This document shows positions 4,866 to 33,510 of a stretch of DNA of 64,000 nucleotides, one piece after another. Source of the DNA: an uncultured Burkholderiales bacterium (GTDB lineage: Bacteria > Pseudomonadota > Gammaproteobacteria > Burkholderiales > Burkholderiaceae_C); NCBI GenBank assembly GCA_902825995.1, contig CADEDE010000004.1, positions 3,977 to 67,976 on the forward strand, in the 5' to 3' direction. Numbering within the stretch: position 1 is the first letter of the stretch; each line of letters opens with the position of its first letter. The position numbers were made by a program, and so were the translations under genes. The notes below the pieces were generated by a model, which saw nothing but the letters and a program-made list of their open reading frames with translations, was not told where the DNA came from and did no database searches.

Positions 4866-5731
4866 TGGCCCAGGACAGCGGCGTGACCCCGTTGCTCGAC
4901 GCCTTCTGGCGCGCCGCCGCGTATTGCCTGCACCCGCGGGTGATCCTGCTGTCGCTGGCGCCGCTGCTGCTGGCCGGCGGGCTGACGCTCGCACTGGGCT
5001 GGTTCTATTGGGAGCCCGCCGTGGCGGGCGTGCGAGCGACGCTCGAAGCCTGGTCGTCGCTCGAGGTGCTGCTGAAATGGCTCGAGTCGATCGGCCTCAA
5101 TGGCTTGCGCGCATTGATCGCGCCCCTGATCGTGCTCGCACTGGCGCTGCCGCTGATCGTCGTGCTGTCGCTGTTGGTGGTGGCCTTGTCGATGGCCCCG
5201 GCCCTGGTGTCGCTGGTCGCCCGACGGCGCTTTGCCGAGCTCGAAGCCAAACGCGGCGCGGCGCTGTGGCAATCGGTGTTGTGGTCGCTCGGCTGCACGC
5301 TGGTTGCCGTTATCGCCCTCGTGCTCAGCCTCCCGCTGTGGTTCGTGCCGCCGCTGATCTTGTTGATACCACCGCTGATCTGGGGCTGGCTGACCTGCCG
5401 CGTGATGGCCTTCGACGTGCTGGCAGAGCACGCCAGCGCCGACGAGCGGCGCACGATCCTGCGTGAGCAGCGCTGGCCACTGCTGGCCATCGGTGTGGTC
5501 TGCGGCTACCTCGGCGCTGCACCGACGCTGTTGTGGGCGGTGAGCGCGGCAACCCTGATTTTTGCGCCGCTGCTGGTGCTGATATCGGTGTGGCTCTATA
5601 CGTTGGTGTTTGCCTTCGCGGCGCTGTGGTTCGCCCATTTCGCGCTGGCGGCATTGCAGCGCCTGCGACAATCGACGATGCCGGTGCCACCGGCTCCTCT
5701 TCAACCCATCGAAATACTGCCTCTGTCATGA
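4865..5731 (+). CDS. EI24/CysZ-like polytopic inner-membrane protein
   Basis: 288 aa, 6-7 hydrophobic helices, high GC3. ATG overlaps the previous stop by 1 nt. The family assignment is from memory of similar annotations and is tentative. Confidence 0.6.
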   Translation: MAQDSGVTPLLDAFWRAAAYCLHPRVILLSLAPLLLAGGLTLALGWFYWEPAVAGVRATLEAWSSLEVLLKWLESIGLNGLRALIAPLIVLALALPLIVVLSLLVVALSMAPALVSLVARRRFAELEAKRGAALWQSVLWSLGCTLVAVIALVLSLPLWFVPPLILLIPPLIWGWLTCRVMAFDVLAEHASADERRTILREQRWPLLAIGVVCGYLGAAPTLLWAVSAATLIFAPLLVLISVWLYTLVFAFAALWFAHFALAALQRLRQSTMPVPPAPLQPIEILPLS

Positions 5732-5798
5732 CCAACCCCAAGCTCACTTCGTTCGCAGCCCCCCAAGGGGGCGTCAGCACGCTTGGGGCGGCCCGGCG
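5729..5798 (+). repeat. Family-1 GC-rich hairpin element, copy A (intergenic)
   Basis: TGACCAACCCCAAGCTCACTTCGTTCGCAGCCCCCCAAGGGGGCGTCAGCACGCTTGGGGCGGCCCGGCG. The 7-bp stem is CCCCAAG (5761-5767) paired with CTTGGGG (5782-5788). Its TGA is the stop codon of the upstream CDS. Confidence 0.85.
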
Positions 5799-5807
5799 CG
5801 TACTGGC

Positions 5808-6602
5808 ATGAACTTCGGCCTGATCATCGTCGGCGACGAAATCCTCTCCGGCAAACGCCAGGACCAGCACCTGCCCAAAGTCATCGAACTGCTCGGCGCT
5901 CGCGGCCTGTCGCTGGCCTGGGCGCGCTATGTCGGCGACGACCGCCGGCTCATCACCGAAGCCTTGCGCCACGCTTTCGCCAGCGGCGACGCGGTCTTCA
6001 GTTGCGGCGGCATCGGCGCCACGCCCGACGATCACACGCGCCAGTGCGCCGCGGCGGCGCTCGGTGTGGCGCTCGAATTGCATCCCGAGGCCAAGGCCCT
6101 GATCACGCAGCGCATGCAAGACCGGGCGGCGGAAAAGGGCCTGCCCTTCGATGCCGATGCGCCCGACAACATCCACCGTCTGAATATGGGTGTATTCCCG
6201 GCGGGCGCCTCGATCATCGCCAACCCGTACAACCAGATTCCCGGCTTTACGGTTGGCGAGGTGCATTTCGTGCCAGGCTTCCCGGTGATGGCGCACCCGA
6301 TGATCGAAACCGTGCTCGACACCCGCTACCGCGCGCTGCACGGTTCGCTGCGCGAGGCCGAATACTCGGTGATCGTCTATGGGTCGATCGAGGCCGCACT
6401 GACGCCGCTGATGGAAGCCGTCGAGCGCGACCACGCCGGCGTGCGCGTGTTCAGCCTGCCCAGCGTCGATCACCCGGTGCATGGGCGGCACATCGAGCTC
6501 GGCGTCAAGGGCGGCGAAACCTTGCTGCCTGCGGCCTATGCCGCGCTGCGCGCCGGGCTGGCCGCCCTGGGCGCGCAGACAGGCCCCGAACTGGTGCGCT
6601 GA
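5808..6602 (+). CDS. CinA-like competence/damage-inducible protein (MoCF-biosynthesis domain)
   Basis: [19 protein letters not shown] and [14 protein letters not shown] motifs are typical of the CinA N-terminal domain family. Confidence 0.75.
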
Positions 6603-17118: not shown

Positions 17119-17619
17119 TCAGCCGCCCCGGCGCACGCGGCGCAACTCGTCGGCGATCAGCAGGGCGGCGCCCAGCGTGATGGCGCTGTCGGCGAGGTTG
17201 AAGCTGGGGAAGTACCAGCCGCGCCAATGCAGCTGGATGAAATCCACCACATGGCCGTGCAGCAGGCGGTCAACGACATTGCCCAGGGCCCCGCCCATGA
17301 TCATCGTGACCGCGAAGCAGAACAGTTTCTGCGTCGGATGGCGGTGCAGCATCCAGGCGATGAAGCCGGCCGCGACGATGCCCAGCGCGACGAAGAACCA
17401 GCGCTGCCAGCCCGCCGCGCCGGCCAGGAACGAGAATGCCGCGCCGCTGTTGTGCACGCGCACGAGATTGAAGAACGAGGTCACATGGCGGCTGTCGCCG
17501 AGCTGGAAATAACCCAGGATCAGGGTCTTGGTGAACTGGTCGAGGACGATGACCAACAGCGCCAGGCCGAGCCAGAGGGCGAGGCCGGGAGCGCCGGAGG
17601 AAGAGCGGGCCGCGCTCAA
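17119..17619 (-). CDS. lspA: Lipoprotein signal peptidase (signal peptidase II)
   Basis: [14 protein letters not shown] and [15 protein letters not shown] motifs. Start proposed at TTG 17619, overlapping the ileS TGA and giving 166 aa. An upstream ATG at 17673 would overlap ileS by 58 nt. Confidence 0.85.
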
Positions 17620-20549
17620 GCGATGCTGCGGACTTCGCCCGCGCCGTAGAGGTTGCTTGTACAACGCCCGCAAAGGGCCGGGTGCGCGGCGTCATGGCCG
17701 ACGTCGCTGCGCCAGTGCCAGCAGCGTTCGCACTTGGCGGCGGATGACGGTGTCACGGTGATGACCAGTGCAGCGCCGCACCGCAGCCTCGCCTGCGAAG
17801 TGATCAACACGAACTTCAGGTCTTCGCCCAGCGTGGCCAGCAGTTCATGGTCGGCCTCGTTCAGCGTCAGTGTGACTTCGGCTTGCAATGACGAACCGAC
17901 GCTGCCTTCGCTGCGCACCGCCTCGATGGCCTTGTTGACCTCGTCGCGGATGGTGCGGATGCGCTGCCACTTGGCGAGCAGCGCCGCATCGGGTGCGTCG
18001 AAACGCCAGAAAGTTTCGGTGAAGATCGACGGCGACTGGCCCGGCGCAAGCACCGGCCAGGCCTCCTCGGCCGTGAACGACAGGAACGGCGCCATCCAGC
18101 GCAGCATCGCGTGCGTGATCTGCCACAGCGCCGTCTGCGCCGAGCGGCGGGCGAGCGATTTCGGCGCGGTGGTGTAGAGGCGATCCTTCAGCACGTCGAG
18201 GTAGAACGCGCCCAAATCTTCGCTGCAAAAGAGCTGTAGCTTGGCGACCACCGGGTGGAACTCGAAGCGCTCGTAGTGGGCCAGCATTTCGGCCTGCAAC
18301 TCGGCCGCGCGCGACAGGGCCCAGCGGTCGATCTCGAGCATGTCAGCCACGGGCACGGCGTCGCGCCCGGCGTCGAAGTCGGCGATATTGGCGAGCAGGA
18401 AGCGCAGCGTATTGCGGATGCGCCGGTAGCTGTCGACCACCCGGGCCAGGATCTTCTTGTCGATCGGCGGGTCGCCGGCATAGTCGGTCGAGGCGCACCA
18501 CAGGCGCGCCACCTCGGCGCCCGGATCCTTGGCGAACTCGCGGATTTCGATGATGTTGCCGAGCGACTTGCTCATCTTGCGGCCCTGGCCATCGACCGTA
18601 AAACCGTGTGTGAGCAGGCCGCGATACGGTGCATGGCCTTCGAGCGCGCAGCCCAGCAGCAGGGCCGAATGAAACCAACCGCGGTGCTGGTCGTGGCCTT
18701 CGAGGTAGAGATCGGCTTCAGGGCCGGTTCGGTGGTGCCCGTCGGGATGCGAGCCGCGCAGCACGTGGAAGAAGGTCGAGCCGGAGTCGAACCAGACTTC
18801 GAGGATGTCGCTGCCTTTCGTATAGTCCGCAGCGTCTTTGGCACCGAGGATTTCTTCCGCAGTCACGCGACTCCAGGCCTCGACGCCGCCCCGCTCGACG
18901 ATATCCGCAGCACGGTCGAGTATGGCCATCGTGTCCGGATGCAGTTCGCCCGAATCCTTGTGCAGGAAGAAGGGCAGCGGCACACCCCAGCTGCGCTGGC
19001 GGCTGATGCACCAGTCGGGCCGGTTGGCGATCATGTCGCGCAGGCGGGCCTGGCCGTTGTCGGGGAAGAACGCGGTGGCGTCGATCGCCTCGAGCGCCAT
19101 TGCACGCAAGGTGCGCGGCGCCTTGTCCTTGGTGAAGACGCCCGCCGTTGACACATTTGCTTCGTCCATGCGGATGAACCACTGCGCGGCGGCGCGGTAG
19201 ATCACCGGCGTCTTGTGGCGCCAGCAATGCGGGTAGCTGTGGGTGATGGGCGAGGTGGCAAACAGGCGCCCGGCCTCGCGCAGCGCTTCGATGACGACCG
19301 GCACCGCCTTCCAGATATTCAGCCCGCCGAACAGCGGGAAGTCGGGTGCGTAGCTGCCGTGGCCCTGCACCGGGTTCAGGATTTGATCGACCTGCATGCC
19401 ATGCGCGGTGCATGAGTGGAAGTCATCCACGCCATAGGCCGGCGACGCATGCACGATGCCGGTGCCGTCGTCGGCGGTGGCGTAGTCGGCCAGATAGACC
19501 GGCGCGAGGCGGTCGTAGCCGGCGTCTATGTGCGCAAGGGGGTGGCGGAACAGGATGCCGCCGAGCTTCTCGCCCCGGGTCGTTGCGACCACATGGCCCT
19601 GCAGAGCGTAACGCCCGAGACATTTCTCGACCAGCGATGCCGCGAGCACGAGCTGCCCGCGCTCGGTGTGCACCAAGGCGTAGTCGAGTTCGGGATGGAG
19701 GTTGAGTGCCTGGTTGGCGGGAATCGTCCACGCGGTGGTGGTCCAGATCAGCGCAAAGGTTTCACCGACGATTTCAGGCAGACCGAAGGCTGCGGCCAGC
19801 TTGTCGGGCTCGGCGCACAAAAAGCCGACATCGAGCGTCTGCGATTTCTTGTCGGCATATTCGATCTCGAATTCGGCCAGCGACGAGCCGCAATCGAAGC
19901 ACCAATAGACCGGCTTCAGGCCGCGATAGACGAAGCCGCGCTCGATCACGCGCTTCAGGGCCCGCAACTCGCCGGCCTCGTTGGCGAAATCCATCGTGCG
20001 GTACGCATGCTCCCAATCGCCGAGCACGCCCAGGCGCTGGAAATCGGCCTTCTGCTGCGCGATTTGTTGGCTGGCGTAGGCCCGGCTCCTGGCCTGCATC
20101 TCGTCGCGGCTGAGCTTGCGGCCATGCGCCTTCTCGATCGCATTTTCGATCGGCAAGCCGTGGCAGTCCCAGCCCGGCACATAGCGCGCATCGAAGCCCG
20201 CCAGTTGCTTGGACTTGACGACCATGTCCTTCAGGATCTTGTTCACCGCGTGGCCGATGTGCAGCACGCCGTTGGCATACGGCGGGCCGTCGTGCAGGAC
20301 GAACAGCGGCGCACCGTGGCGCGCGTCGCGCAGCTTCTTGTACAGGCCTTGTTCGTTCCAATCCGCGATCCAGCCCGGCTCGCGCCTGGGCAAATCGCCG
20401 CGCATCGGAAACGGGGTGTCGGGCAGGTTCAGCGTAGCGCGGTAGTCGGGCCGGCAACTGCCGCCGGGCCGCCCCAAGGCCGTTGCGCTCCCCTCGGGGG
20501 ACGACGCCGTAGGCGTCCTGGGGCGGTCATTTGATTTCGGTTCGGACAT
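17616..20549 (-). CDS. ileS: Isoleucine--tRNA ligase
   Basis: 977 aa with HIGH ([11 protein letters not shown]), KMSKS ([10 protein letters not shown]) and a C-terminal zinc-finger pair (CERCWHW...CGRC). The N-terminus carries ~30 extra residues that include repeat copy B. Confidence 0.95.
20461..20529 (-). repeat. Family-1 element, copy B (inside the ileS 5' coding region)
   Basis: Minus-strand read: TGACCGCCCCAGGACGCCTACGGCGTCGTCCCCCGAGGGGAGCGCAACGGCCTTGGGGCGGCCCGGCGG. Translated as [23 protein letters not shown]. Confidence 0.85.
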
Positions 20550-20716
20550 GGTGCGGGTGCGGCGGGTGGCGTCTGGTGTTCGTGACGCCTGTTTCAGGCA
20601 CCGGCCTGATCGGGATCAAGCCAGTCGGTGGTTCGCGAGTGGAACCCGGCTAAATTCGATCCCGTGTGGTTTGCCGACACGTCGTCGTGCGCCAGCGCAG
20701 GAGATCGAGTCGAACC

Positions 20717-21547
20717 ATGCAAGCAACCATGCGGCAGATTCTACCGGTGGCCATCTGGATGCTGGCCGGGACGCCGTTGCCTGCGTGCGCGCAGGTGGAG
20801 GCTTCCCCGTCGCCGAGCGCGCGGCCGAACTTCGGAGGTGCGATCGGCCTGCAGTGGAGCAACGCGCCGCGGTACCAGGGCTCGAACTTGCGCGAAAACT
20901 CGTTGCAGCCGGGTATCTACCTGCGCTGGGGTCGTTTCTGGGTGGCCACGGCCGGCAATTTCGTGACCCGCCAGGACGGTGAGGTGCTGCGCGGTGTGGG
21001 TGCCGAACTGGTGCAGCGCGATGACCTGCGCGTGCGGCTCGGATTGCGCTTGGACCCCGGACGCAAGACCCGTGACAGCCCTGAACTCGCCGAACTCGAC
21101 GACATACGGCCGACGGTGCGCGCACGCCTGTCGGCGACCTGGCGTTTCAAGCCCGATTGGCAGTTGGGTACCGGATGGAGCACCGATGTGCTCGGCCGCC
21201 AGGGCGGGAGCCTGGTCGATCTGTCCATCTCGCACAGCATTCGCCTCAGCCAGCGCACGCATTGGTCGCTCGGCAGCAGCCTGTCCTGGGCCGACGAGCG
21301 CTACATGCTCGCCCGCTTCGGCATCAGCCCCGCGGCCGCTGCCCGCACGGGCCGGCCAGCCTATGAGCCAGGAGGCGGTTGGCGCGACGCCGCCCTGAAC
21401 ACGGAATTGCGCACCGACATCGATCGGCGCTGGTCAGTCTGGGCCGGTGCCAGCGTGAGTCGATTGCTTCGTCCGGCGCTGGCCAGTCCACTGACCCTGA
21501 AACCGACGCAAGTGGCGACCGGCGCAGGATTCGCCTGGCGATTCTGA
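20717..21547 (+). CDS. MipA/OmpV-family outer-membrane protein
   Basis: Signal peptide ending ACAQ, alternating beta-strand pattern and a terminal aromatic residue (FAWRF). Confidence 0.8.
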   Translation: MQATMRQILPVAIWMLAGTPLPACAQVEASPSPSARPNFGGAIGLQWSNAPRYQGSNLRENSLQPGIYLRWGRFWVATAGNFVTRQDGEVLRGVGAELVQRDDLRVRLGLRLDPGRKTRDSPELAELDDIRPTVRARLSATWRFKPDWQLGTGWSTDVLGRQGGSLVDLSISHSIRLSQRTHWSLGSSLSWADERYMLARFGISPAAAARTGRPAYEPGGGWRDAALNTELRTDIDRRWSVWAGASVSRLLRPALASPLTLKPTQVATGAGFAWRF

Positions 21548-21567: not shown

Positions 21568-22542
21568 TCAGGCGCGTCCCGGCTCGGCAAACCAGGCGCG
21601 CGCATCGGCACTGTCCTGCGCAATGCCTTCGCGCAAAGACGCCAAGCACGCGTAGATGCGCTCGTCGTGCAATTTGTGCAGCAGTTCGACCTTGACCACG
21701 TGACCGTAGGCACCATCGCGGCCGAGTTCGCCTGGCCAGTCCAGGCAATGCACCTCGAGCAGGATGCGCCCACTGGCATCGACCGTCGGCCGCCGGCCCA
21801 GGCTGGCGACGCCGGGCAAAGCTTGCGCAGCCAGGCCATGCGTGCGGGCCACAAAGATGCCCATCGCCGCGGGCGGATGGGGCAGGCGCAGGTTGAGGGT
21901 CGGGAAGCCCAGCTCGCGCCCGAGCCGGGCACCGTGCTGGACATGGCCGCTGATACTGTAGGGGCGGCCCAGCAGGGCCGCGGCGCGGACCATATCGCCG
22001 TTGGCCAAGGCCTCGCGCACGGTCGAACTCGATACGCGCTGACCATGCACTTCATAGCTTTGCATGCGCGCCACGTCGAAGCCGAGTGCGTCGCCGGCAG
22101 CGTCGAGCATGGCGTAGTCGCCGGCCCGCCTGGCGCCAAAGCGGAAGTCGTCGCCCACCAGCACGTAGCGCACGCCGAGGCCGCGCAGCAACACTTGCTC
22201 AATGAAGGCCTGCGGCGTCAACGCCGCCAAGCGTTCATCGAAGCGCAGCAGCACCGCCTGCTCGATACCGCAGCGTTCGAGTTCGGCGAACTTGTCGCGC
22301 AGCGTTGCGATGCGCGCCGGGGCGTCGGCAGAGCGACCCGCGGACCTGGCCCGGGCAGCGAAGAAATCGCGCGGATGCGGCTCGAAGGTCAGCACACAGG
22401 ATGGCAGGCCGCGGTGGCGGGCTTCGTTGATCAGCAAGGCCAGCATGGCCTGGTGGCCGCGGTGGACACCGTCGAAGCTGCCGATCGTGGCAGCGCAGGC
22501 CGGCGCCAGATCAGGATGGTGGAAACCGCGCAGGACTCGCAT
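21568..22542 (-). CDS. ribF: Bifunctional riboflavin kinase / FMN adenylyltransferase
   Basis: 324 aa (IGSFDGVHRGH, FEPHP, GFPTLNL, EVHCLD). ribF-ileS-lspA is conserved synteny. Confidence 0.93.
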   Translation of the reverse strand: MRVLRGFHHPDLAPACAATIGSFDGVHRGHQAMLALLINEARHRGLPSCVLTFEPHPRDFFAARARSAGRSADAPARIATLRDKFAELERCGIEQAVLLRFDERLAALTPQAFIEQVLLRGLGVRYVLVGDDFRFGARRAGDYAMLDAAGDALGFDVARMQSYEVHGQRVSSSTVREALANGDMVRAAALLGRPYSISGHVQHGARLGRELGFPTLNLRLPHPPAAMGIFVARTHGLAAQALPGVASLGRRPTVDASGRILLEVHCLDWPGELGRDGAYGHVVKVELLHKLHDERIYACLASLREGIAQDSADARAWFAEPGRA

Positions 22543-22600
22543 GAGCGCGATTATTGCGGCGCTGCCGGCGCCGCAGCGCTGAAACTCGCCGCTTCAGTCG

Positions 22601-22679
22601 GCGCTGGGCCGCTCCCGAGCCGACCGAGCGCCCCCTCGGGGGGGGCAGCCAGCCAAGCCAGCGTGGGGGCGGACATTCA
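22601..22679 (-). repeat. Family-1 element, copy C1 (intergenic hisA-ribF)
   Basis: Minus-strand read: TGAATGTCCGCCCCCACGCTGGCTTGGCTGGCTGCCCCCCCCGAGGGGGCGCTCGGTCGGCTCGGGAGCGGCCCAGCGC. The stem CCCGAG/CTCGGG is fully Watson-Crick. Confidence 0.8.
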
Positions 22680-22685
22680 GGCCAG

Positions 22686-22761
22686 CGCCGGGCCGCCCCA
22701 AGCGGCCTGAGTGCCCCCTCGGGGGGCAGCGAGCGCAGCGAGCGTGGGAGCGGATATTTCA
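22686..22761 (-). repeat. Family-1 element, copy C2 (its TGA is the hisA stop codon)
   Basis: Minus-strand read: TGAAATATCCGCTCCCACGCTCGCTGCGCTCGCTGCCCCCCGAGGGGGCACTCAGGCCGCTTGGGGCGGCCCGGCG. It lies 6 nt from copy C1. Confidence 0.85.

Positions 22762-28389: not shown

Positions 28390-28393
<4 letters not shown>
26606..28393 (-). CDS. hisD: Histidinol dehydrogenase fused to a C-terminal GNAT acetyltransferase domain
   Basis: 595 aa. Residues 1-~436 are HisD ([15 protein letters not shown], ending [10 protein letters not shown]). An 11-aa linker ([11 protein letters not shown]) is followed by a 148-aa GNAT fold ([29 protein letters not shown]). The reading frame is continuous with no stop. 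Confidence 0.85.
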
Positions 28394-30760
<2,367 letters not shown>

Positions 30761-31434: not shown

Positions 31435-33510
31435 ATGCGCTTTCGCCAGCACGAGCGCACGGCCCGGCAATCCACGCTGCGCCTGCTGGCCCTGTTTGCG
31501 CTGGTCGTCCTTGGCCTGCTGGTCGCTGTCAATGCGGTATTGGCGCTGATCTACTGGGCAACATTTCCATTCGCACGCGGCTTCCCGACGCTTTTCTTCG
31601 AGACCAACAGTGCGCTGGTGCTGTTGTTCGTGCTGGGTGGTTGCTGGGTCGAGTCGATGCGCCTGCGCGAGGGCGGCGCGCATGTCGCGCGCCTGGCCGG
31701 CGGGCGCGCGGCGCAGCTGTCCAGTGGCGGCGAACTGGGCCTGCTGGAACGGCGCTTCACCAACATCGTGCAGGAAATGAGCCTGGCCAGCGGCTATCCC
31801 GGCTGGCCGCCCGCCTGGGTGCTGCCCAAGGACGATGCGATCAACGCCTTCGCCGCCGGCTGGGGTGCAGACGACGCGGTGGTCGCCGTCACGCGCGGCG
31901 CACTCGAGCGCCTGACGCGCGCCGAGTTGCAGGGTGTCGTCGCGCACGAGTTCAGCCATCTGGTGCATGGCGATACGCGCCTGAATATGCGCCTGATCGG
32001 CCTGGTCTGGGGCCTGCAGATGATCTGGGGCCTGGGCCTCTCGCTGTGGGAGCCCGACGAGCAGGGCCGCCGCGGCGTCGGCAGCCTGTTCGGCCTGGGC
32101 CTGATGGCGGTCGGCTCGTTGGGCTGGGCCGCGGGGCGCCTGTTGCAGGCCGCGGTGAGCCGGCAGCGCGAATTCCTGGCCGATGCCTCGGCGGTGAAAT
32201 ATACGCGCGTCGTGGATGGCCTGGGCGGCGCGCTGCGCAAGATCGCCGACCAGCAACTGCAGGGCCGCGCCGGGCTGCAAAGCGCGCATACCACGAGCCT
32301 GGCGCACCTGCTCTTGAGCGCCCCCGGACCTGCCGCTTCGCGTCAGCCCCCCCGAGGGGGTCAAGGAAACTTGGGAGCGGCCCGGCGTTTCCTCGAGAGC
32401 GATCGCGGTGCGGGCGCCGGCTGGCGGGCGCTGTGGCACACGCACCCGCCCTTGGCTGAGCGGCTGCGCCGCTTGTACGGGCGCGAAATGTTGCCGCTGG
32501 CGGCGCCGGTGCTCGCGGTCGGTGCTGACGCCATCGAACCGCCGATGCGTCTGGCACCAGGCCCGTTAGCGCACGCCCGCGGGCCCACCGGCGCGAGCCA
32601 GCCCAGCGGCGCGAGCCCCGACGCCGAGCGCCACGACGCGCTGCAAAACCCGGCTTCCTTCGACGCACGGGCGCGCGAACAAGAGGCCCTGGCCCGCATC
32701 GAACATTGGCACGGTCCCGGCGAATGGCAGGCCGCGATGCTCGCGCTGGCACTCGATTTCGATGCACCCGAGGCCACGCTGCGCTGGCTCGAATGGCGCA
32801 ACGCCACCGCCGATCTCGGCGTGGCCGCATCAGTGCAGCGCGAGATCGAGGCCCTCGGCGCCAACGCGCGGCGGCAGGTCTTCACGACGCTGATGCACCG
32901 GGCGCGCAGCGCAACGCCCACGCAACGCCGCATCTTGCGGCTCGCGCTGCGGCAGCGCTGGTCGGCGCTGCCGCCGTCAGCGGCCACGCAATGGCGCGCA
33001 CTCGGGCTTGGGTTGCTGCTGAGCGCCCCCGGACCTGCCGCTTCGCGTCAGGCCCCCCGAGGGGGTCAAGGAAACTTGGGAGCGGCCCGGCGTTTCCTCG
33101 AGAGCGACAAGCGTCGGCCCCTCACGCGTGCCGACACGGCCGCATCACTGGCGCTGCACTCCGATCCCGCGCACGCCGCCACCGGGCTGCTCGCGCGCGC
33201 CCTGGGCGCTACGCCCGCTGCGGCCCAGGCCTGGCACAACGCAGCCACACAGGCGCTGGCCGAACTCGGCGCCGCCGCGCCGCGCGGCCCTGCCGCGGGC
33301 CTGGCGCCGGCCACGCGGCCGCGAAACCTTCATCTTGCCTTGCGCGTGCGCCGCATCGCGCCGATGCAGCGGCCGCTGCTGTTGCGGGCTTGGCTGGGCG
33401 CCGCCGAGCGCGGCGGCCTGTTCAGCCACGCCGGCACCGGCGATGCGCTGCACCTGGCCTGCCTGCTGCTCGAGGTGCCGGTGCCCGAGAGCCTGGTGCC
33501 CAGGCCCTGA
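31435..33510 (+). CDS. M48-family zinc metallopeptidase with a long C-terminal extension
   Basis: 691 aa with N-terminal TM helices, HEFSHLVHGD (HExxH), REFLADASA and THPPLAERLRRL. Adjacent to lemA. Contains two in-frame repeat copies. Confidence 0.8.
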   Translation: MRFRQHERTARQSTLRLLALFALVVLGLLVAVNAVLALIYWATFPFARGFPTLFFETNSALVLLFVLGGCWVESMRLREGGAHVARLAGGRAAQLSSGGELGLLERRFTNIVQEMSLASGYPGWPPAWVLPKDDAINAFAAGWGADDAVVAVTRGALERLTRAELQGVVAHEFSHLVHGDTRLNMRLIGLVWGLQMIWGLGLSLWEPDEQGRRGVGSLFGLGLMAVGSLGWAAGRLLQAAVSRQREFLADASAVKYTRVVDGLGGALRKIADQQLQGRAGLQSAHTTSLAHLLLSAPGPAASRQPPRGGQGNLGAARRFLESDRGAGAGWRALWHTHPPLAERLRRLYGREMLPLAAPVLAVGADAIEPPMRLAPGPLAHARGPTGASQPSGASPDAERHDALQNPASFDARAREQEALARIEHWHGPGEWQAAMLALALDFDAPEATLRWLEWRNATADLGVAASVQREIEALGANARRQVFTTLMHRARSATPTQRRILRLALRQRWSALPPSAATQWRALGLGLLLSAPGPAASRQAPRGGQGNLGAARRFLESDKRRPLTRADTAASLALHSDPAHAATGLLARALGATPAAAQAWHNAATQALAELGAAAPRGPAAGLAPATRPRNLHLALRVRRIAPMQRPLLLRAWLGAAERGGLFSHAGTGDALHLACLLLEVPVPESLVPRP
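32315..32387 (+). repeat. Family-1 element, copy D1 (in frame inside the M48 peptidase gene)
   Basis: TGAGCGCCCCCGGACCTGCCGCTTCGCGTCAGCCCCCCCGAGGGGGTCAAGGAAACTTGGGAGCGGCCCGGCG. Translated within LLLSAPGPAASRQPPRGGQGNLGAARRFLESD. Confidence 0.85.
33020..33092 (+). repeat. Family-1 element, copy D2 (in frame inside the M48 peptidase gene)
   Basis: Near-identical to D1: about 3 mismatches over the ~96 bp shared block 33013-33108 versus 32308-32403. Confidence 0.85.

Follow-up and report, generated by a model that had tools for sequence, protein, structure and literature searches.

The isoleucyl-tRNA synthetase gene ileS lies on the minus strand of a 64,000-nucleotide stretch of DNA from an uncultured Burkholderiales bacterium (contig CADEDE010000004.1; the whole stretch is called the window below), and a copy of a short structured repeat sits in its reading frame, behind the start codon and ahead of the first motif that is conserved in the enzyme (IleRS). 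The locus raises the question of whether the ATG in front of the repeat, at 20549, was recruited after the insertion had displaced an older start, as an initial annotation of this DNA proposed, or whether it is the ancestral start of the gene, behind which the repeat came to lie. Comparison with related alleles that lack the repeat shows the latter to be the case, and copies of the same repeat are read in frame in other genes as well. The features on which the argument relies are the following.

17616..20549, minus strand: ileS coding sequence, 977 codons plus stop (translation, matches to PDB IleRS entries, Pfam on the product of the related locus L081)
20535..20549, minus strand: ancestral start (ATG 20549-20547) and codons 2-5 (SEPK), homologous in alignments to the 5' end of element-free orthologues
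20451..20534, minus strand: repeat copy A, an 84-nt inserted block in place of 6 nt found at the empty site, a net gain of 78 nt (26 codons)
20528..20530, minus strand: ATG at the 5' end of the element, in the +1 frame relative to ileS, with 33 open codons followed by TGA
20529-20527, minus strand: 5' TGA of copy A
20526-20520, minus strand: C-run of copy A
20517-20503, minus strand: hairpin GACGCC-TAC-GGCGTC of copy A
20500-20490, minus strand: CCCCCGAGGGG of copy A
20486-20482, minus strand: stem arm GCAAC of copy A, pairing with GTTGC 20458-20454
20478-20462, minus strand: conserved loop CTTGGGGCGGCCCGGCG of copy A
20475..20477, minus strand: in-frame TTG (codon 25), a rival start within the conserved loop, 10 codons before the motif
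20458-20454, minus strand: stem arm GTTGC of copy A

The repeat copy in ileS and the element-free alleles

The ileS product is a bacterial type-1 (class I) isoleucyl-tRNA synthetase. HIGH (as LHIGHA), KMSKS, and the C-terminal Zn-finger cysteine pattern are present in its translation, and the Pfam families tRNA-synt_1, Anticodon_1, and zf-FPG_IleRS were found on the L081 product, which is 97.7% identical at the amino acid level. As the initial annotation had read, the conserved N-terminal motif, DY(K/R)xTLNLPxTxFPMRG, begins at residue 35; residues 35-119 match solved IleRS chains from chain residue 2-4 (E 1e-29), and the tail ahead of the motif has no counterpart in these structures. The accompanying expectation that IleS proteins start 2-4 residues before the motif holds for the solved structures and fails for relatives of this organism, where tails ranged from ~5 to ~31 residues among 40 related loci (e.g., L021, MSQDANAKPDNAKKGGAKAAKASDSTPESKY). 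The same annotation was correct that no in-frame ATG, GTG, or TTG separates the 3' end of the element from the motif, a segment from which CTG, ATT, ATC, and ATA are also absent, and that the element's own ATG is out of the ileS frame and ends at a TGA. Its limit for the element, 20461, was too short, as the repeat continues to the 3' arm of the last hairpin at 20458-20454. Its central observation, that ileS is read through a repeat copy and thereby gains an unusually long N-terminal tail, was upheld.

Copy A was scored by a covariance model (R1), built from 101 copies of the family, at 48.7 bits (E 6e-8) over positions 20448-20527, and it carries the family motifs in the family's order (CCGCCCCAGGAC, CCCCCGAGGGG, CTTGGGGCGGCCCGGCG). 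The fold energy of the element region was ordinary relative to shuffles in its G+C-rich context (z −0.87), and Rfam gave no match at this copy with E up to 1; the structure of the element is supported by covariation across copies, not by energy. Pro, Arg, Ser, Thr, Gly, and Ala abound in the peptide that the insertion adds, which is presumably disordered and neutral.

A first protein search with the N-terminal 140 amino acids of IleRS returned short fragments only, none of them with the extension, and informative relatives were obtained by exact-sequence cluster look-up. The 90% protein cluster of the window's IleRS contains 956-aa members (MTHPTPTPDYRATL), the 952-aa proteins P0131 and P0132 (MSEPKPTPDYRATL), and the 929-aa protein P0129. 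Element-free relatives are ~89-90% identical in protein and begin MSEPKPTPDY or MTHPTPTPDY; the codons ATG TCC GAA CCG AAA (MSEPK) are common to the window and to P0131/P0132, which go on PTPDYRATL. DNA alignment was carried out for five alleles, comprising the window and four relatives (L001, L081, L082, and L083). The relatives match the window across the upstream region and GCACC-ATG, and L082 and L083 also match across TCC GAA CCG AAA. After these shared 5' codons, the empty alleles display one 78-column gap, and the alignment picks up at CCC GAC TAC. Since the start codon and the first five codons are shared with empty alleles, they are older than the insertion. The element therefore inserted 3' of the ancestral start, within a short and variable N-terminal tail, and no new start was needed. 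The proposal that the insertion displaced the ancestral start and that an upstream ATG was recruited was not borne out, as ATG 20549 and the preceding GCACC are homologous to element-free starts, and an orthologue alignment revealed no equally long N-terminus without the element, the element-free tail being 8 residues.

The insertion is also present, at the same site, in L081, which derives from a separate assembly (GCA_030680865.1) of a second genome, 2.4% diverged. Because two assemblies share it, the insertion is not an assembly artefact. Between the two filled alleles, the elements differ by 6 substitutions in 87 nt, with no indel and no stop; in the remainder of ileS, 2.3% of sites and 4.4% of third positions differ. 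Outside the element, 64% of the differences (45 of 70) fall at third codon positions, and ileS is therefore under purifying selection. From the substitutions in the element it follows that the frame was kept while the peptide is no more conserved than silent sites. By these comparisons, the ileS insertion is real, inherited, and kept open, its peptide drifting at about the silent-site rate. Synteny of mipA-ileS-lspA is conserved. In the public NCBI annotation of L081 (MDP1692210.1, at L081:3001), IleRS is started at Met49, within FPMRG, although the homologous ATG, 144 nt farther upstream, opens a frame that runs uninterrupted to that point. The Met49 start is almost certainly wrong, and the repeat is the probable cause of the error.

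We therefore propose that a copy of an ~85-nt noncoding repeat, made up of hairpins and invariant single-stranded motifs, inserted in the ileS frame after codon 5, in the short and poorly conserved tail ahead of the first conserved IleRS motif. Ribosomes would have kept initiating at ATG 20549 and would translate through the element, producing a tail of 34 residues instead of 8, and the extra peptide would be passenger sequence and no new functional module. The gene stayed functional, given a net gain of 78 nt, no stop in the ileS frame, and hairpins that begin ~24 nt past the ATG. For this account as a whole, from in-frame insertion after the ancestral start to read-through and passenger peptide, we estimate a probability of about 0.75. 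On this account, the long open reading frame (ORF) from ATG 20549 is settled as the ancestral frame with a passenger insertion and not as a mis-called start. Taken by itself, the ileS case is an ordinary tolerated in-frame repeat insertion.

Start codon use and rival explanations

Several observations weigh against this account. Frame upkeep at ileS relies on a single comparison, that of two filled alleles without indels. The 5' TCAAATGA of the filled allele is missing from empty sites, in contrast to the hisG and M48 sites described below, where a TGA-containing target is duplicated. The Met49 start annotated by NCBI for L081 would remove the conserved motif. No Shine-Dalgarno (SD)-like purine run precedes the ileS ATG in any of the five alleles, although this is shared by the element-free alleles, and an in-frame TTG with an SD-like GAGGGGAG lies inside the element. 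The 20 nt before the start are C-rich (CCACCCGCCGCACCCGCACC; region 20550-20580, minus strand), as they are in L001 and L081-L083. L001 offers no ATG, GTG, or TTG in frame ahead of the motif other than the homologous ATG; together with the lack of an SD sequence in all five alleles, this indicates that in this clade an ATG without an SD sequence starts ileS, whether the element is present or absent. The predicted unpaired probability from −20 to +15 around the ATG was 0.62 and 0.65 in the filled alleles and 0.57-0.60 in the empty ones, and stable pairing within the element does not set in until ~24 nt past the A of the start codon. Owing to this similar accessibility, the insertion should not occlude initiation. 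Initiation at the ancestral ATG 20549 is thus probable.

The initial annotation had named ATG 20549 as the only available start; this is inexact, as TTG 20477-20475, within the element, is in frame. This codon could serve as the main or an additional start, with the element's GAGGGGAG as its SD sequence, in which case the tail would be 10 residues and the 24 codons upstream would be untranslated or belong to a minor isoform. The arrangement has some appeal, as ATG 20549 lacks an SD sequence, the SD-like GAGGGGAG at 20495-20488 ends (with GGAG) 10 nt upstream of the TTG, and the GAGGGGG...CTTG layout is conserved in every family copy, which would make an internal start physically available. However, the SD-like run is part of the family's conserved CCCCCGAGGGG hairpin, the most conserved one, in which GAGGGG pairs with CCCCC, and the region from +16 to +100 is mostly paired (probability unpaired, 0.28); in L081 the run is weakened to GAGGGGAA. 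The element-free alleles start at the homologous ATG without an SD sequence, hence that ATG functions without one. The insertion length is a multiple of 3, as read-through from the ATG predicts, though chance alone would give this in 1 of 3 cases, and in hisG (see below) the corresponding TTG does not lie in the gene's frame and the indels, which preserve that frame, show read-through from the upstream ATG. Use of the TTG is accordingly considered unlikely. Whichever of the two starts operates, translation covers no less than the final ~27 nt of the element.

Two further explanations are far less probable still. Destruction or displacement of the ancestral start by the element, followed by recruitment of a chance upstream ATG, would fit the long tail and the lack of a start between element and motif, yet ATG 20549, the five bases preceding it, and the next four codons are homologous to element-free starts, and the insertion lies 3' of codon 5; we give this explanation very little credence. 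The filled ileS might otherwise be an assembly artefact or a decaying pseudogene, its function supplied by a second IleRS gene. Some bacteria do have two IleRS genes, the sequences come from metagenome-type assemblies, and the view of the genome is confined to the window. This, too, is highly improbable, as the same insertion occurs in two independent assemblies, the 977-codon frame is intact in both with its differences concentrated at third positions, and the mipA-ileS-lspA order is retained. The preferred account thus remains insertion behind the ancestral ATG with read-through of the element.

The region upstream of ileS contains two features that overlap each other.

20616..20745, minus strand: conserved block with TAGAAT at 20743-20738 and a remnant of the ribF 3' end (...CRQTTRDRI*), overlapping the 5' end of mipA
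20717..21547, plus strand: mipA, divergent from ileS

This conserved block, of ~110 nt, was considered as a regulatory leader RNA or leader peptide, and the idea was rejected, the block being a relic of the ribF 3' end (...RRQTTRDRI*) left when mipA inserted. The ribF gene of most Comamonadaceae has the C-terminus RRQTTRDRI* and is immediately followed by ileS; here, mipA lies between the two genes in this clade, and the present ribF (21568-22542, minus strand) ends early (...WFAEPGRA*). TAGAAT is conserved despite lying in rare ATT CTA codons of mipA, and its conservation suggests that it may be the −10 element of ileS. Scans of the conserved block for sigma-70 promoters and terminators returned nothing.

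The repeat family and its other translated copies

The copies in the window were first found by motif searches and then by the covariance model, which recognizes seven, the ileS copy and six others; a generic direct-repeat search of the window returned only the near-identical pair E and F.

5731..5812, plus strand: copy D, immediately upstream of ATG 5808 of a molybdopterin-binding/CinA-like gene, with CATGA on both flanks
22588-22671, minus strand: copy C, in tandem with copy B, the pair lying between a stop at 22759 and the ribF start near 22542
22672-22754, minus strand: copy B, in tandem with copy C, intergenic
29021..29103, minus strand: copy G, which separates the hisG body from the murA stop (covariance model, comparison of alleles)
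32317..32401, plus strand: copy E, in frame in the M48 peptidase domain of ORF 31435..33510, read as SAPGPAASRQPPRGGQGNLGAARRFLE
33022..33106, plus strand: copy F, also in frame in ORF 31435..33510, within the C-terminal half of the M48 peptidase

Four of the seven are coding, namely those in ileS, at the hisG N-terminus, and two in the M48 peptidase gene, and the net insert length is 78 nt at ileS and 81 nt at hisG and at both M48 sites. The hisG gene (28390..29106, minus strand, 238 aa) has a start ATG that overlaps the TGA of murA, and its frame runs through copy G, 26 codons of it being repeat encoded. Within the 90% cluster of this protein, which holds related metagenome alleles, an empty form of 212 aa is found on at least 38 contigs, next to filled forms of 238, 239, and 247 aa, so that every length difference, also among the filled alleles, is a multiple of 3 nt. 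At the DNA level, the empty site reads GGC-ATGA-TCACC and the filled site GGATGA|CGACCCCC...GGCGGCCTGA|TCACG. The ancestral overlap of murA TGA and hisG ATG (ATGA) was thus split by copy G, which parted the ancestral ATG from its gene and left no other canonical start.

Copies E and F each add ~27 residues, are 97% identical, and are absent from seven aligned homologues. The Pfam M48 domain spans copy E, which lies just before the THPPLAERL motif in the catalytic domain (HtpX-like), and the target of both copies is CTG|AGC, which holds an out-of-frame TGA. The closest M48 homologue (L104:501-2415, 84% over the first part) loses similarity past approximately residue 295 of the translated match and looks frameshifted near the site of copy E.

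An in-frame family copy was also found in ileS of another genus (L025:1840-1931), where it reads ...IEKLHGKK[GAPTLPAERGSLPPEGAVQGLGSGPSALEA]RAEFQAK... and is placed between IENAIEKLHGKK and RAEFQAKCRAF. This copy is independent, and IleRS has been struck at least twice. A copy was counted as genic if a frame crossed it without a stop and both of its flanks had a coding signature; by this definition, 18 of 113 testable copies in other genomes (16%) lie within genes, in either orientation. When ten spanning ORFs were submitted to Pfam, domains lay across the insert or on both sides of it in eight. The domain spans the insert in Pgi (L170), GlpK (L205), GcvT (L150), and an acyl-CoA dehydrogenase (L185), and domains flank it on both sides in biotin carboxylase (L120), GlmS (L123), UvrA (L125), and RadA (L153). 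The genic copies (18 loci, L116-L223) read approximately APTLxxxxxALPPEGAxxALGRPGG on one strand and AGPPQGxxAPSGGS on the other, and in L212 two tandem copies are in frame within a nitrilase-like gene. Head-to-tail arrays with a period of 79-87 nt are frequent (L114, L164, L169, L201, L212, and L226). Overall, essential proteins tolerate this family as 26-31 extra residues, as in IleRS (twice), HisG, Pgi, GlpK, UvrA, and RadA. The family thus amounts to a large natural experiment on where proteins accept insertions, and it is a recurring cause of gene-start annotation errors.

A pattern of the two most conserved motifs, searched in species-representative genomes, matched at least 119 stretches. 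The taxa include Hydrogenophaga, Polaromonas, Rhodoferax, Variovorax, Ramlibacter, Acidovorax, Rubrivivax, Roseateles, Ideonella, and Caldimonas, as well as Sphaerotilus, Achromobacter, Bordetella muralis, Pigmentiphaga, Burkholderia guangdongensis, Azonexus, and Thiobacillus. Invariant motifs occur in the order G/A-CCCCC-A-(C/G)GC..., CCCCCCGAGGGGG, and CTTGGGGCGGCCCGGCG. In the alignment of 101 copies, the unit (~85 nt, ~75% G+C, at least three hairpins) consists of a 5' C-run (GCCCCCACGCT), a variable hairpin, CCCCCCGAGGGGG, a variable arm X, the 17-nt loop CTTGGGGCGGCCCGGCG, and an arm X' complementary to X, such that a variable stem closes an invariant loop. At each of six pairs of the X/X' helix (columns 76-82/98-104), 31-49 of the 101 copies are changed on both sides, and the covariation score was 0.428, compared with 0.121 in shuffles, none of 500 attaining the observed value, and with no more than 0.131 after the partner had been slid. 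This design, in which the loops are conserved and the stem is site specific, is unusual. At gathering thresholds, Rfam returned nothing for the whole window, the tandem copies giving only noise below threshold; no Pfam family was found for the peptides encoded by the element, and literature searches by element motifs, peptide readings, and taxon names yielded no description. The family is seemingly undescribed.

The insertion sites carry a signature of their own. Over loci L108-L226, the 14 nt before the C-run hold TGA in 50% of copies against a background of 14%, and ATG in 53% against 16%, a 3- to 4-fold enrichment. A TGA-containing duplication was seen at hisG (ATGA/CTGA) and at both M48 sites (TGAGC/GAGAGC). 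Arm X' resembles the copy's own 5' flank, with at least 7 of 8 positions matching in 18% of copies compared with 4.8% of controls, and 8 of 8 in nine copies compared with 0.2%; this likeness is partly a trivial effect of tandem arrays and holds also for solitary copies and for hisG, where the native flank is GGCCGGCATGA and X' is GGGCGGCCTGA. Often, as in copies B, D, and G and in L144 and L177, the 3' stem arm repeats 7-11 nt of the 5' flank, including TGA or ATGA, and the other arm is complementary. These sequence likenesses suggest that the stem may be target derived or target pairing. The ileS site departs from the pattern at other sites, as its X' is unlike the native flank and, unlike at hisG and M48, no TGA target or duplication was recognizable there. 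We put forward only tentatively, as somewhat less probable than its converse, that the copies belong to one Burkholderiales-wide system (Comamonadaceae, the Sphaerotilus-Rubrivivax group, Alcaligenaceae, some Burkholderia, Rhodocyclales, and Thiobacillus) with a site-copied or site-paired stem and a preference for (A)TGA junctions, whose units have repeatedly become coding in essential enzymes as N-terminal extensions or internal loops.

Comparison with known repeat systems

Four groups of bacterial repeats invite comparison. The Bor repeats of Bordetella (PMC1590033) are likewise G+C-rich stem-loops near coding regions in a betaproteobacterial genus, and the present family has copies in Bordetella muralis and Achromobacter. 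Bor units are 26-30 bp, with a consensus given only in a figure (PMC1590033), and the comparison made here covers their description. REP/BIME/REPIN elements, which are mobilized by RAYT, resemble the family as abundant G+C-rich hairpin repeats near gene ends with long persistence (PMC2817692, PMC3733652), and intragenic in-frame REPs are documented, e.g., in uvrA and uvrB of several species (PMC3733652). A REP, however, is a single hairpin of 20-40 nt with a GTAG/CGTC tag and a conserved stem, often arranged in inverted dimers (PMC2817692, PMC3733652), whereas the family has units of ~85 nt with several hairpins, a variable stem, invariant loops, and direct arrays, and neither GTAG nor CGTC tag is present in the consensus of 101 copies.

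The MITEs (ERIC, BOX, Correia, and Nezha; PMC10969869, PMC3184786) share small size, lack of autonomy, and in-frame ORF fusions with the family. They show target-site duplications, to which the TGA-containing duplications at hisG and M48 may correspond, none being recognizable at ileS. They are defined by terminal inverted repeats derived from insertion sequences (PMC10969869, PMC3184786); the 101 copies contain no conserved terminal inverted repeats, as they begin with GCCCCCACGCT and finish in a stem arm that differs from copy to copy. The combination of conserved loops with a stem that mirrors the target is unlike REPs or MITEs.

The closest likeness is to the RPEs of Rickettsia (Ogata et al. 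2000, via PMC10969869 and PMC3733652), which, as summarized there, are short, structured, nonautonomous repeats found in frame in unrelated housekeeping genes and also between genes, and which add 20-50 residues at sites that the protein tolerates. In-frame palindromic repeats in housekeeping genes are presented there as the hallmark of RPEs and are reported for REPs and some MITEs too (PMC10969869, PMC3733652). Palindromic insertions in frame in functional genes were found for the present family in ileS, hisG, the M48 gene (twice), pgi, glpK, gcvT, and others. RPEs are ~100-150 bp, AT-rich, and occur in reduced, obligately intracellular alphaproteobacteria, in contrast to the ~85-nt, ~75% G+C units of the present family, whose hosts are free-living Burkholderiales and have large genomes; the family is further set apart from RPEs by a variable, covarying stem next to invariant loops, by frequent head-to-tail arrays, and by an association with (A)TGA at the 5' end. 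By this analogy, we would call the family RPE-like in function only and claim no membership for it, its hosts being G+C-rich Burkholderiales. The repeat behind the ileS copy represents an RPE-like, Burkholderiales-wide, and seemingly undescribed family of odd architecture. If the tentative system outlined above is real, it would constitute a free-living, G+C-rich counterpart of the Rickettsia RPE phenomenon, possibly with a new mechanism of mobilization.

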